IMG/VR virus record: IMGVR_UViG_3300045988_052724
Location: 96,001 to 160,000 of that record
Direction: 5' to 3' (one strand)
Origin: a virus
Length of the DNA: 64,000 nt
Positions 4,220 to 62,845 of the stretch are shown here, piece after piece; within the stretch, counting starts at the first letter, position 1; every line of letters begins with the position of its first letter. Below the pieces are notes generated by a model. It was not told the DNA's origin and ran no database searches. It worked only from the letters and a program-made list of their open reading frames with translations. A program made the translations under genes and the position numbers.

Positions 4220-5341
4220 TTAAGCACTTGCTTGAGTGACTGTAATTTCTTTAGCTGCCACAGCACCAGTTTCGTCCTTTACAGTAACCTTTACTAATGC
4301 ACTGCGAGATTTACCAGTTCCATTATCTGTACCAGTAATACCAACCTTAGTTGCACCAGGAGTTACAGTAATCCAATCTGCTTCTGTCTCTGCATCTACC
4401 CATTTAACAGTTCCTTCTTCAATAACAGGAGTTATATCTTGTTTAGTACCAAGCTTTACAAGACTAACATCCTGAACTCCACTCTTAATGAAGATAGGTT
4501 TCTTCTCTGTAGTTAGGGTACCTAGCACAGCTAATGCTGCTTCGAACTCTGCAGCGATAGACTCTAGTACATAGAATACATGAGTAGTCTTAGATGTAAC
4601 TTGCTGACCAACAGCAGCACCCCCAAACAGACCTCTATCTACTGTGTAGTAAATAGTATATTGGTTGTACTTCATTCCTGGGATAGGAAGTTCCTCTTGG
4701 TTTACAGCTTCAAATCTTCTAGCCTCAATAGTAGGTAATCTAAGGTCTTTTAGGATGTGAGTATAGGTACCAAATCCCTCAATACTCTTAGTAATTGTAC
4801 CTTCTATAATATCCTCATATACTTCGTTAGTAAGTGGATTATTAGCAGCTGTATTAAGCTTTTGAATCTTAGCCTCAGTGAATAATTGATACTCATCAAC
4901 TCCGTGGATTATTAACTTATCGCCTTTAACCTCAGTTCTGATGTATTTATCACCGTAGAAAGCCTGAATCTTATCAATAACTCTTTTAATTTCTTTAGCA
5001 ACATCAGTTGCAGAGGTGGAACCAGAGGTGATTCTGAACTCATAAACAAAAGGCTTACCTTTGAATACGAAGTCATTAGAGTAGTATGAGTTCTGACTTC
5101 CAGATAATCTGATGTATAACTTCAACCTATAGATACCTACGCCTGGGTTAGTAATAGTGAACTCTGCCTTACCAATAACTGGGTCGGAAGCAGTTCTCTT
5201 GTGCATAGCACTTACGTTCTTCTTGAGGAACTTGTTTACACGTCTTACCTCAATGTTGTCTGAACCCTTAACGATTTTATCTAAACCAGTGGTTACATCT
5301 TTCAGTGAGTTTAATACAATAGTGTTAGTGTACTGAAACAT
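4220..5341 (-). CDS. Virion surface protein with a C-terminal Ig-like/BACON-like domain (373 aa)
   Basis: The C-terminal ~90 aa (…WVDAETEADWITVTPGATKVGITGTDNGTGKSRSALVKVTVKDETGAVAAKEITVTQ) follows the pattern of BACON/Ig-like display domains. The gene is followed by a strong terminator, as highly expressed structural genes often are. Confidence 0.5.
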   Translation of the reverse strand: MFQYTNTIVLNSLKDVTTGLDKIVKGSDNIEVRRVNKFLKKNVSAMHKRTASDPVIGKAEFTITNPGVGIYRLKLYIRLSGSQNSYYSNDFVFKGKPFVYEFRITSGSTSATDVAKEIKRVIDKIQAFYGDKYIRTEVKGDKLIIHGVDEYQLFTEAKIQKLNTAANNPLTNEVYEDIIEGTITKSIEGFGTYTHILKDLRLPTIEARRFEAVNQEELPIPGMKYNQYTIYYTVDRGLFGGAAVGQQVTSKTTHVFYVLESIAAEFEAALAVLGTLTTEKKPIFIKSGVQDVSLVKLGTKQDITPVIEEGTVKWVDAETEADWITVTPGATKVGITGTDNGTGKSRSALVKVTVKDETGAVAAKEITVTQASA

Positions 5342-7248: not shown

Positions 7249-7441
7249 TTATGCTTCTTTCATAATGAAGCTTCTGTATGGAGAGAATACTCCAACACCA
7301 GAATAACCCCAGTTGATTACCTTAGATGCAGCTGTAGTACTTGAAACAATACCAGAGCTTAGACCATCTAAACCACCCACACCAGGATACTTGTTAGTAA
7401 TGAAGTCACCACCCTTTAATGTGAACATTTGGCATATAATG
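7249..7441 (-). CDS. Major capsid protein candidate, exon 2 (the 5' boundary is approximate, within 7427-7447)
   Basis: The open frame has no ATG at its head; the track ORF begins at a TTG. It lies 39 nt downstream of the homing endonuclease stop. It can be joined in frame to the 8367-9604 ORF at a U / omega-G pair of splice sites. Confidence 0.55.
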
Positions 7442-8366
7442 CCCAACGTGTTACCACGTTGATTAGACTATATCTTAAGTTTAGTCAATGTACTTAAACG
7501 TAAAACCTCCTGCTTGCTTACGTGTTCCCTTTAAAACATGAACACATCCACAGAAGTCTCTTTTACATTCCCTTACTGTATTGTACACTTTTACTAAGTC
7601 TCCTTGTAATGTGTACTGTCCAACACGTTTTGGTTTGTTTACTTTATCGTAGATTTCAAGTTTATCTACCTTATCATAAGACCACATATAACCACCAGCT
7701 TGACCTTTAGTTTTAATTGCTCTTGCAATGTTTAAACTCTTGGTTCCTTTTAAAGCTTTAGTGGCTAGTGCCACTGATTCGAAGGTTTGTATGTACTCTC
7801 CATCTAACGAGTACTGATGAACCTCTCTCATACTATGAGGAGGAACGTTTCCGCCTTCAGTGATGTTATAAGTATCCTTCCGCTTTATAAATTCAGTAGT
7901 AACTAACCATGCTTCTAAGTCTAAAGCATCTTGTAAGTTATTAAACTCTTTAAGAGTTACTCTAATGAATTTATCTGGACCGTACTTATTAACTGCATAC
8001 TGGAATGGAGTTTGACTGAACTTGTAAGTAGATGGTTTGTATGTTAAAACTCCACATCCTAAGTATCCGTCAAATTTATCCATTAATGTCTTATGAACTC
8101 CAATATAAATTTTACCGTTTATTGTGTTAGTAGTAAGGTACACTATGTACCTTGGATTTAAACTTTCTCCCATTTCAATTAATTTAATTATTAATTTACG
8201 TCAAACTGACTAGTCGTTGAACCTTACTGAGAGCTACTCTATGAGCCTGCTTATCCTCAGTCTTGGCTGCTGATTGTCCTACTGTTTCAAGGAGTCCCAG
8301 CAATTAAAGAGATTTTAATTTTGCGTTAATTATAATGGCTACGCTGCCCAGCAACCCGAATGTTCA
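7442..8366 (-). mobile_element. Putative group I intron carrying a GIY-YIG homing endonuclease ORF
   Basis: An 8-bp P1-like pairing joins the exon end CCAGCGAU (8374-8367) to the internal guide GUUGCUGG (8355-8348). It includes a terminal U.G pair. The 193-nt segment at 8174-8366 is noncoding, visibly GC-richer and rich in helices. A G precedes the in-frame exon 2 junction. A HEG ORF lies inside. Confidence 0.55.
7481..8173 (-). CDS. GIY-YIG homing endonuclease with C-terminal NUMOD/IENR-like DNA-binding repeats (230 aa)
   Basis: The N-terminus RYIVYLTTNTINGKIYIGVH is a GIY-YIG motif, with …YNITEGGN downstream. Two C-terminal repeats are present: KSLNIARAIKTKGQAGGYMWSY and VLKGTRKQAGGFTFKY. 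Confidence 0.8.
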   Translation of the reverse strand: MGESLNPRYIVYLTTNTINGKIYIGVHKTLMDKFDGYLGCGVLTYKPSTYKFSQTPFQYAVNKYGPDKFIRVTLKEFNNLQDALDLEAWLVTTEFIKRKDTYNITEGGNVPPHSMREVHQYSLDGEYIQTFESVALATKALKGTKSLNIARAIKTKGQAGGYMWSYDKVDKLEIYDKVNKPKRVGQYTLQGDLVKVYNTVRECKRDFCGCVHVLKGTRKQAGGFTFKYID

Positions 8367-9604
8367 ATCGCTGGTTCACCGCTAGTCTTATCAGCAGTAA
8401 GGTCAAGCATTAGACCAAAGCCCTTTTCAGAACCCCATTCACGAGAGAATGTTCTGTCTACCTTGAATGAAATAGTGTTACCACCGATTTCGTAGCTATT
8501 GAATGTAGCACCAACGTCTACATATCCATTAGCCTTCTTAGACCATAGATAAGTACCACAAGTTTTGAATCTAGCAAGCCATTCTGATAGACAGCTTTGA
8601 ATGTCATTCCACATCTTCTCGTTGCAGATGAATACATACTTGTTACCAGTTGGGTTCTCACTCTTCTCATTCATCATAGCCATAGCTGTAGTGAATGCTT
8701 CTGGAGTAAGTTTGTTGTATACATACTTAGATGCAAATCTCTCGATTTGTGGGATGATACCATCACCAATATAGATTGGACGACCAGTGTCAGGGTCAGA
8801 GATTGTTGGTTTACCGTTCTTATCTACGTTAGTCTTATTAAATAATAGACCTTGGTTACGTACTTCAAGGAAGTTTCTTAATAGATTCTTCTCAAGAGTA
8901 TCCATCTTATACATTGTCTCTTTTACAGCACCATTGCCTTCACCTTTACCAATACTGATGAATGTTTGCTCAAGTGGCTTGAATAGAGAAGTATAGCTAT
9001 CATCAACACGATGTGTTGTAATGTAACCTCTGTGTCTCTCAATGTTAGATTGATACTTAACATAACCCTCTTCATGAGCTTCAGGCATAGCGTTAGATTG
9101 GAATCTTGTAGTGTCACCAATCTGACATCCGTCTAAGTCAAGAATTGAAGAATAGTCATTATCAATTAGTCTTACCTCAACAGTCCAATAGTTATCTGCA
9201 ACTCTTGTAGGTCTAGAGATAACTTGGCATTGCTGCATTGTTTTGTCAATCTTAAAAATGTCATACTTCTGGTAATAGTTCTCTTTGAAAGCCATTACGA
9301 TGGTTGTACCACCTTCACCATTAGTTGCTGGAACATCTGCGAACTCAACTCTCTTGATGTAGTTGGTTTCAACTTCCCACTCGAAGTACATACTATCAAT
9401 GCTTCTGTATTTGCTATTTGACTTAGAATCCATGTAGAAGATATTTCTTAGGGACTCTGTCAAGTAAGAAGCAGTTAGGTTAGGGTAAAGTCTTGAAACT
9501 ATACCAAGTCTAGTTGGTTTTGTGCCTAAGAACTTATAGAAATCTTCATAAGTTCTAGTTTCGCTCATTGTAGGGCGATTGGTTACGAAATTTGCTACTA
9601 TCAT
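8367..9604 (-). CDS. Major capsid protein candidate, exon 1 (the uninterrupted track ORF runs to a stop at 8339)
   Basis: A 421-aa ORF lies immediately downstream of an acidic coiled-coil scaffold-like gene and behind a canonical promoter. Exon 1 plus exon 2 would give about 475-480 aa. Confidence 0.6.
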
Positions 9605-62055: not shown

Positions 62056-62191
62056 AATTCAAAATTTTATAATTAATACGTTATTTCTTCCTTATTGTTT
62101 GGTAATACAAAGATAATACATTCTAAATAGATTACCTAATGAGTTATACTTAAATATACTTAATATAGGCGAACTCAATTACTAGGTACTC

Positions 62192-62210
62192 CAAAAATAC
62201 GCCCCTCCCC
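62192..62210 (+). repeat. Direct repeat copy 1 (CAAAAATACGCCCCTCCCC)
   Basis: It shares CAAAA.ACGCCCC.TC with 62354-62370. It forms a GC-rich island in AT-rich intergenic DNA. Confidence 0.5.
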
Positions 62211-62263
62211 ATTGAGGTGACCAGTCAATAAATATTTGAGTTTTATTGGTAGATAATTGTTAG

Positions 62264-62287
62264 ATTTGCAATTCGCGAATTGCAAAT
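62264..62287. repeat. Perfect 24-bp palindrome ATTTGCAATTCG/CGAATTGCAAAT (candidate operator or origin element)
   Basis: I read it directly, and both halves are exact reverse complements. It is located in the divergent intergenic region. Confidence 0.85.
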
Positions 62288-62353
62288 TCTTTAGTCTGAG
62301 TTTGTCATGGGATATGTGAGTAGGAGCTATGTTGTGAGAGGGAGGGTAGTGTA

Positions 62354-62370
62354 CTACAAAACGCCCCCTC
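62354..62370 (+). repeat. Direct repeat copy 2 (CTACAAAACGCCCCCTC)
   Basis: See copy 1. The two copies flank the palindrome. Confidence 0.5.
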
Positions 62371-62414
62371 TGGGTTGCTCAAGAAAAATTGAATTAAAAT
62401 TGAAGTTGCCGATG

Positions 62415-62499
62415 CACTATTACTAATATATTTCATCAGTCTTTGCTTGAATTGTTGAACTTAAAACCTTGCGGTGTAGAGGCTAACCGCAATACAGTC
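62415..62499 (+). promoter_or_regulatory. Leader/promoter cassette copy 1 (CACTATTACT… TTGAATTGTTGAACTT … hairpin GCGGT-N10-ACCGC)
   Basis: It is one of three ~85-nt units with the same order of blocks and the same distance (82-85 nt) to an ATG. Confidence 0.6.
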
Positions 62500-62580
62500 A
62501 TGCAAACTACATACGTTTTATTCAATGGCGTTTTGGTTACTTTACAAGAGTACAAAGAAATGATTGCAGAGCAACAATAG
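62500..62580 (+). CDS. Micro-ORF (26 aa) MQTTYVLFNGVLVTLQEYKEMIAEQQ
   Basis: It is a paralogue of 62713-62790, and several of the differences between them are synonymous. It has its own leader cassette and a downstream hairpin. Confidence 0.55.
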   Translation: MQTTYVLFNGVLVTLQEYKEMIAEQQ

Positions 62581-62595
62581 TGCTCTGCTTTCAAA

Positions 62596-62628
62596 AGGAG
62601 ATTGTCTCCCTTTAATTCTTTTCTTTTA
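62596..62628 (+). terminator. Hairpin plus T-rich tract after micro-ORF 1
   Basis: GGAGA-TTG-TCTCC is followed by CTTTAATTCTTTTCTTTT. A second hairpin, GCAGAGCA/TGCTCTGC (62566-62588), spans the stop codon. Confidence 0.45.
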
Positions 62629-62630
62629 TA

Positions 62631-62712
62631 TACTATTACTTGTTATATATCTTCATTATGGTTTTGATTATTAACTTAGGCTTTGCGGTTGTGTGTAACC
62701 GTTATCAGAATT
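62631..62712 (+). promoter_or_regulatory. Leader/promoter cassette copy 2 (TACTATTACT… TTGATTATTAACTT … hairpin CGGTT-N6-AACCG)
   Basis: See copy 1. Confidence 0.6.
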
Positions 62713-62790
62713 ATGAATACGACATACGTTCTTTATTGTGGTGCATTGATTACTTTAGCTGAATACAAAGCAATCATCGCTGAACAGTAG
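62713..62790 (+). CDS. Micro-ORF (25 aa) MNTTYVLYCGALITLAEYKAIIAEQ
   Basis: Paralogue of 62500-62580. Confidence 0.55.
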   Translation: MNTTYVLYCGALITLAEYKAIIAEQ

Positions 62791-62797
62791 CATTAAT

Positions 62798-62825
62798 GGG
62801 AGTGGCGACACTCCCTTATTTTTTC
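62798..62825 (+). terminator. Intrinsic terminator
   Basis: GGGAGTG-GCGA-CACTCCC followed by TTATTTTTT. Confidence 0.7.
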
Positions 62826-62845
62826 TAATCATTAATACTTATCTT

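Follow-up and report, generated by a model that had tools for sequence, protein, structure and literature searches.

The major capsid gene on a 64-kb stretch of the IMG/VR virus record IMGVR_UViG_3300045988_052724 (64,000 nucleotides (nt), positions 96,001 to 160,000 of that record; hereafter the window, whose coordinates are used throughout) is interrupted by what is very probably a functional and mobile group I intron, which lies within codon Ile413 and encodes an I-TevI-like homing endonuclease. The intron spans 934 nt (7433..8366) and is inserted between the second and third bases of the codon, with splice boundaries between positions 8367 and 8366 (5') and between positions 7433 and 7432 (3'). 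Like the capsid and endonuclease frames, it is located on the minus strand. Exon 1 (8367..9604) comprises codons 1-412 and the first two bases of Ile413, and exon 2 (7249..7432) comprises the third base of that codon, codons 414-473 and the stop. The finding adds a well-resolved case to a phenomenon already known, group I introns having been described in crAss-like phage capsid genes in 2021. What may be new is the exact junction together with the RNA structure, the long contiguous P1+P10 guide, and the presence of a sister intron that is offset by one nucleotide.

The original prediction, made from the sequence without database searches, had proposed that the capsid gene is divided by a group I intron in which a GIY-YIG homing endonuclease is encoded, and this core claim is borne out by matches to the Rfam group I model, by intron-less homologues, and by a structural match of the endonuclease to I-TevI. 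The three open reading frames (ORFs) on which it was built were correctly located and described: the capsid ORF (8339..9604, 421 amino acids (aa)), which ends at its own stop codon, the endonuclease ORF, and an open frame (7249..7446) whose head lacks an ATG. The capsid identity proposed for the first ORF agrees with the match of exon 1 to Pfam PF23898 Crass_capsid (E-value 1.1e-14, 54.2 bits against a cut-off of 27). Exon 1 aligns without gaps to intron-less capsid genes, and the protein is only 22-24% identical to genes annotated as 'major head protein' in RefSeq crAss-like phages (tblastn, weak). The stop in the exon 1 frame is a UAG (8339..8341, intron nt 26-28) situated just beyond the guide sequence, so that unspliced RNA would be translated to the 421-aa product only; the equivalent stop in the sister intron is found at its nt 28-30. 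The 193 nt from U8367 to the endonuclease ATG had been described as noncoding, GC-richer and helix-rich. They indeed contain no ORF, but their G+C content (38.3%) exceeds that of exon 1 (38.1%) and of the window (35.8%) marginally, the endonuclease ORF having 34.9%, and their helical character receives modest thermodynamic backing.

The position of the junction was established by comparison with intron-less alleles among the 80 best IMG/VR capsid loci and in GenBank. MT835470.1, the only related GenBank phage record, possesses an uninterrupted capsid gene of 473 aa that reads ...SGEPAIQMFTLKGGDF..., and this record and approximately 70 of the 80 IMG/VR relatives run through ...GEPAIQMFTLKGG... 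without interruption. When the exons were aligned to these homologues, the latter were found to read straight through the site, and the 934-nt stretch is exactly what the intron-less alleles are missing. Joining U8367 to C7432 restores a capsid protein of 473 aa (a product of about 480 aa had been anticipated), which aligns without gaps to MT835470.1 and is 100% identical to the uninterrupted ORFs of locus L002 and many other relatives. A capsid protein ending at the equivalent of 8339, which would have spoken for two independent genes, was not seen among the intron-less homologues, these being uninterrupted at the site. The exact 473-aa protein is encoded on at least 1000 public contigs (e.g. 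DAH97676.1, 'MAG TPA: major capsid protein'), the truncated 421-aa ORF on 95, and the endonuclease on 184.

As had been predicted, the 5' splice site follows U8367; a site after U8366 was rejected, because restoring IQM would then need a C as the last intron base. The terminal guanosine (omega G) is G7433 (intron nt 934), with the 3' splice site directly after it. No other G both yields the GEPAIQMF of the intron-less alleles and keeps the frame in each of the five alleles that bear an intron of the window's type (hereafter type A). The predicted ligated junction, ...GGUGAACCAGCGAU joined to CCAAAUGUUCACAUU..., corresponds to the intron-less site in the GAACCAGCTATCCAAATGTTCAC region of L002, and the predicted junction-spanning peptide of the spliced capsid is ...TSGEPAIQMFTLK... 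The ligated junction pairs with the first 19 nt of the intron at 18 of 19 positions, which is far beyond chance: in 20,000 shuffles the best value was 17, reached once, with a mode of 11.

This pairing is made up of two contiguous helices. P1 consists of 8 base pairs (bp) between the end of the 5' exon (CCAGCGAU, 8367..8374) and the internal guide sequence (GUUGCUGG, 8348..8355, intron nt 12-19), and ends in a U8367.G8355 wobble at the 5' splice site; this helix, including its terminal U.G, had been proposed in the original prediction and is also found in the unconstrained minimum free energy (MFE) fold computed with RNAfold. P10 is formed by intron nt 1-11 (UGAACAUUCGG, 8356..8366), which adjoin the P1 guide, and by the start of exon 2 (CCAAAUGUUCA, 7422..7432), with 10 of 11 positions paired. 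The P10 pairing starts at the first base of exon 2 and thereby defines the true 3' splice site. A complementarity between UGAACAUU and AAUGUUCA, remarked upon earlier as an additional curiosity, is present and represents P10.

An Rfam search, which had been suggested as a check, matched both halves of the ribozyme to the group I model RF00028. The first match (8151-8362, 37.1 bits, E-value 2.3e-7) covers P1/P2, P3, P4, P5, P6, the 5' strand of P7 and P3', and the second (7446-7478, 24.3 bits, E-value 1.6e-3) covers J8/7, the 3' strand of P7 and P9. They are the only group I matches in the whole 64-kb window, and the whole-window Rfam scan yielded no further introns; no transfer RNAs were found in the window. 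All of the conserved elements P (AAUUGCUGGGA), Q (AAUCAGCAGCC), R (GGUUCAACGACUA) and S (AAGAUAUAGUC) are present, and the unconstrained MFE fold of the 5' half of the intron recovers P1, P2, P4, P5, P6/6a/6b, P7.1 and P7.2.

Numbering the intron from position 8366 (nt 1), the 5' half opens with a weak P2 hairpin (GCGU ... ACGC, nt 23-26 / 41-44, 8323..8344), seen in the MFE fold. P3, supported by the Rfam alignment and the helix table, pairs UCUCUU (nt 55-60, 8307..8312) with GGGAGA (nt 196-201, 8166..8171), the latter extending over the final nucleotide of the endonuclease start codon (AUG) and over codons 2-3. The P4-P5 domain (8267..8303), which holds the P and Q elements, is aligned with high posterior by Rfam and is found in the MFE fold; it contains P4 (UUGCUG/CAGCAG, nt 64-69 / 95-100) and P5 (UCCU/AGGA, nt 74-77 / 87-90). 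It is followed by P6, P6a and P6b (nt 101-146, 8221..8266, MFE fold) and by the 5' strand of P7 (GACUA, 8211..8215), which lies within the R element according to the Rfam alignment, P7 as a whole being formed by nt 152-156 / 897-901. Two further hairpins of the MFE fold are located between P7 and P3', namely P7.1 (GUCA-GUU-UGAC, nt 157-167, 8200-8210) and P7.2 (AAUUAAU-AAUUAA-AUUAAUU, nt 171-190, 8177-8196). P8 pairs AAGUUUA (nt 202-208, 8159..8165) with UAAACUU (nt 884-890, 7477..7483). In the 3' half, J8/7 (nt 891-896) and the 3' strand of P7 form the S element (7466..7476, posterior of about 1 in the second Rfam match), and P9 is a hairpin (AACGUG-GUAA-CACGUU, nt 907-922, 7445..7460) aligned by Rfam. 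In the classification of Michel and Westhof (1990), extra P7.1/P7.2 hairpins between P7 and P3' reportedly mark subgroup IA. We take the two hairpins found here to be the P7.1/P7.2 pair typical of that subgroup, and on this basis the intron is classified as IA-like.

The guide GUUGCUGGG (8347-8355) is nearly repeated by the 5' strand of P4, AUUGCUGGG (8296-8304), so that the 5' exon or the 3' strand of P4 could mispair, a possible misfolding trap. The P4-P5 core was also found, without any change, in 58 other viral contigs; the majority of these carry compact introns that lack an ORF and have R and S spaced in the standard way. Examples are L085, L087, L089 and about 25 other loci, environmental viral contigs on which the P4-P5-P4' core of such compact introns is identical. 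A search of viral contigs for an ORF-less derivative of the window's own intron found none.

The homing endonuclease ORF (7481..8173, intron nt 194-886, 693 nt) encodes a protein of 230 aa and fills the loop of P8. An N-terminal GIY-YIG domain is followed by DNA-binding modules of the NUMOD1 and I-HmuI-NUMOD-like types. The protein matches PHROG 314 'homing endonuclease' (E-value 1.9e-29) and NUMOD1 (27.8 bits against a cut-off of 22.8), the I-HmuI NUMOD-like match being weak and below threshold; both modules are common across its relatives. Fifteen of 20 relatives match the Pfam GIY-YIG family (best E-value 1.5e-6), and four of 20 match SegE_GIY-YIG. The predicted GIY-YIG identity is supported by structure: for an AlphaFold model computed from an alignment of 24 sequences (mean predicted local distance difference test score (pLDDT) of 88), the top matches in the PDB are to the catalytic domain of I-TevI (1MK0 and 1LN0, probabilities 1.0 and 0.99), with a template modelling (TM) score of 0.66-0.68 over approximately 100 residues at 22% identity. 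Sequence searches of the PDB, using either the endonuclease alone or a 20-sequence profile, returned nothing significant. The motifs IVY (residues 10-12) and YIG (23-25) are present, and Y12, Y23, G25, E87 and N103 are invariant in 24 relatives, as are H27, D35, Y37 and R71. Within residues 26-45, an invariant H27...D35-G-Y37-x-G-x-G41 stretch is found instead of an obvious equivalent of I-TevI Arg27. No paralogues of the endonuclease were found elsewhere in the window (phmmer). The start codon of the endonuclease (AUG) lies directly against P3', the 5' strand of P8 consists of codons 4-6, and the UAA stop is located in the 3' strand of P8; given this overlap, the ribozyme can probably not fold while the endonuclease is being translated, and vice versa.

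Other alleles of the same capsid protein are interrupted in the same codon by a sister intron (type B) of 1373-1379 nt, found in L034 (4240-5612) and also in L041, L044, L047, L073 and L078. This intron matches the Rfam group I model (34 bits, E-value 1.7e-6) and encodes a GIY-YIG endonuclease of 356 aa, which shares 54% identity with that of the window. Its junction must be ATT/CAA, one nt downstream of the AT/C junction of the window, and splicing at ATT/CAA gives a product identical to the spliced capsid of the window. The guide sequences of the two types are colinear, their P4-P5 cores are identical, and every helix of the core can be formed by either type, with compensatory differences in P1, P6a, P6b, P7.1, P7.2, P8 and P9. 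Between type A and type B, A-U is replaced by U-A and G.U by U-A in P1, ACUGAG/CUCAGU by CAUUGG/CCAAUG in P6a, GCUC/GAGU by GCGAU/AUCGU in P6b, AAUUAAU/AUUAAUU by CAUUAG/CUAAUG in P7.2, and G-C by C-G in P8. Within type B, P7.1 occurs as GUC/GAC or as GCC/GGC, and within type A, P9 changes from AACGUG/CACGUU to AACAUG/CAUGUU in L075-L077, a lineage of three intron-bearing relatives (G-C to A-U). These differences, taken from helices tabulated by script for four distinct sequences, constitute qualitative support and not a statistic; a MAFFT alignment of both types is untrustworthy in P1, P8 and P9, because insertion points and helix lengths differ.

The same capsid allele is seen empty, with the type A intron, or with the type B intron. 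Between the window and L075-L077, the exons share 79-84% nucleotide identity, as compared with 97.4% for the 5' core of the ribozyme and 92% for the endonuclease gene. The intron thus looks younger than the divergence of the host genes, in line with what lateral spread through homing would produce. The approximately 57 differences between the endonuclease genes fall mostly at third codon positions (44-46), with 10-12 of 230 residues changed, and the endonuclease is accordingly under purifying selection. Codon Ala412 (exon position -3, window 8369) is GCG in all type A alleles, compared with GCT or GCC in all intron-less alleles checked. The GCG allows a G.U pair in P1 where a U would clash (U-U), and it may be either a marker of co-conversion or a tuning of the exon to the guide sequence. 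Type B alleles have their own cluster of silent flanking differences within approximately 16 nt of the junction, and the flanking differences of both types are consistent with co-conversion tracts. A role of the endonuclease in cleaving the intron-less allele and promoting homing would accordingly find indirect support in the presence/absence polymorphism, the flanking marker bases and the purifying selection.

Taken as a mobile group I intron, the element would function as follows. The capsid pre-mRNA would splice itself by two transesterifications, with an external guanosine starting the reaction, and ribosomes on unspliced RNA would halt at the UAG of intron nt 26-28. The I-TevI-like endonuclease, produced from the P8 loop, would cut intron-less capsid alleles during co-infection, and repair off the intron-bearing genome would copy the intron into the cut allele (homing), carrying a few flanking exon bases along. 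The one-nt offset of type B is not producible by ordinary homing, and reverse splicing guided by the unusually long P1+P10 (16-19 nt) may therefore be involved. We offer only tentatively, and as an unlikely rather than a favoured reading, the proposal that the intron shifted its insertion point by one base between the two sister intron/endonuclease pairs, which share ancestry and occupy otherwise near-identical capsid alleles, possibly by reverse splicing via this guide, and that the two elements compete for, and mutually block, a single target.

Several observations weigh against the interpretation as a functional mobile intron. Each Rfam match alone lies under the 50-bit gathering score (37.1 and 24.3 bits), and formally both fall short of it; such scores are expected when a 693-nt ORF in P8 splits the model, and the simple sum of approximately 61 bits is not valid as a score. 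The folding energy of the 5' half is modestly better than that of shuffled sequences (z = -1.65, with 16 of 200 as good), and P2 is weak. The endonuclease of the window scores 18.2 bits for Pfam PF01541 GIY-YIG, below the cut-off of 22.6, and among the 24 relatives neither a clear equivalent of I-TevI Arg27 nor a conserved Arg at matching spacing after YIG was detected. Splicing itself, finally, is inferred from the sequence. This last point, together with the minority status of the intron-bearing allele (95 contigs versus at least 1000), would fit a group I intron that no longer splices, its carrier genomes being defective or dependent on a helper. Such a state is improbable in our judgement, given that the capsid gene is essential, that many long contigs, of up to approximately 191 kb, carry the intron-bearing allele, that the pairing of the core helices is kept through compensatory changes, that exon position -3 is tuned to P1, and that the endonuclease is under purifying selection.

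Equally improbable is a capsid split without any splicing, in which a free-standing homing endonuclease gene has been inserted and the pieces are made as separate proteins that then assemble. There is precedent for a gene divided in this manner in nrdA of Aeromonas phage Aeh1, split by mobE; moreover, the endonuclease is a complete and conserved ORF, the 421-aa ORF ends at a stop codon of its own, and the two Rfam matches are below the gathering score. However, a complete group I core flanks the ORF with a guide that fits both exons, and this core is more conserved than the exons (97.4% versus 79-84%). Exon 2 has no ATG, the sole in-frame start candidate being a TTG at 7446 inside P9, and in L075-L077 the stretch directly before exon 2 contains an indel of 1 nt, which shows it to be noncoding. 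If the gene is spliced, the location of the 3' splice site remains to be weighed. The original prediction had placed it after G7442, 9 nt away from G7433, while cautioning that other junctions within a few nucleotides were equally possible; the chosen junction was wrong. Joining U8367 to C7441 would yield ...GEPA-I-IICQMF... and a protein of 476 aa, and it is true that this junction is in frame in the window and that the last intron base would be a G. The additional IIC residues, though, are found in no intron-less allele, a 1-nt deletion between G7442 and G7433 puts the junction out of frame in L075-L077 and thus excludes G7442, and the P10 pairing begins exactly at C7432 and not at C7441. 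We therefore give this junction practically no credence, and retain splicing at G7433.

A Pfam scan of ten neighbouring genes gave only a BACON domain and weak matches; the domain (E-value 4e-8) is located at the C-terminus of a 373-aa ORF (4220-5341) downstream of the capsid gene, and it fits a Bacteroidota-associated phage. Related contigs cluster at a size of approximately 180-191 kb, within the 145-192 kb of the intron-rich Zeta group of crAss-like phages (Yutin et al. 2021), to which the phage may belong. Elsewhere in the window, a region of approximately 0.8 kb (62056-62845) contains no ORF of at least 50 aa save one 52-aa frame. It lies at a strand switch, between a block of small minus-strand ORFs and genes on the plus strand, and may serve as a regulatory region or an origin.

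The general understanding of group I introns or of crAss-like phages is unchanged by this finding, which is useful chiefly for annotation. For this capsid gene, automated gene calling yields a 'hypothetical protein' cut short at 421 aa (present on 95 public contigs) and an endonuclease, while the final 60 codons go unreported; with the splice sites known to the nucleotide, the correct capsid sequence becomes available for phylogenies and for the peptide databases used in the proteomics of gut viromes. The three states in which one capsid allele occurs (empty, type A, type B) also form a natural system in which homing and competition could be followed in human gut metagenomes. If the one-base shift is true, they would represent a natural shift of an insertion point and two selfish elements rivalling for one site in an abundant gut phage population.

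Among known systems, the intron resembles the td intron of phage T4 with its endonuclease I-TevI, being an IA-type group I intron in a protein-coding phage gene. Its R and S elements (GUUCAACGACUA and AAGAUAUAGUC) are presumably of the phage IA type. As in I-TevI, the GIY-YIG catalytic domain of the endonuclease is N-terminal and the DNA-binding modules are C-terminal; unlike I-TevI, to which it is 22% identical in the catalytic domain, it has no sequence-level match in the PDB and no clear Arg27 equivalent. The ORF of the td intron is located in P6a, whereas that of the window's intron is in P8, and the host gene encodes a capsid protein instead of a function in nucleotide metabolism. The introns in the DNA polymerase genes of Bacillus phages SPO1 and SP82, which encode I-HmuI and I-HmuII, are likewise phage IA-type introns with an endonuclease ORF looped out from a core helix, in their case also P8. 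The endonuclease of the window shares with I-HmuI a NUMOD-like C-terminal module (weak match), and the competition of related introns for one site in related phages is a further likeness, should the two types described here indeed compete. I-HmuI and I-HmuII have HNH catalytic domains, in contrast to the GIY-YIG domain found here, and the host gene also differs.

Group I introns and homing endonucleases also fragment essential genes of the 'Jug' jumbo gut phages, for which metatranscriptome reads confirmed the splicing of 37 of 76 predicted introns (Sci Adv 2026, PMC12880540). These phages belong to another lineage, with genomes of 360-402 kb, and the examples given are terL, nrdD and the DNA polymerase gene, not the capsid gene (PMC12880540). 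The closest parallel is provided by the Delta and Zeta crAss-like phages, in which the capsid gene is among the core genes interrupted by group I introns, found through the protein domains of their endonucleases (Yutin et al. 2021, Nat Commun 12:1044, PMC7886860). The window phage is of the same kind, a gut Bacteroidota phage with a crAss-type capsid whose gene carries an endonuclease-encoding group I intron; it differs in having a single intron, compared with the several introns of the capsid gene presented there as an example. The passages of that account considered here contain neither splice junctions nor RNA structures, both of which are worked out here.

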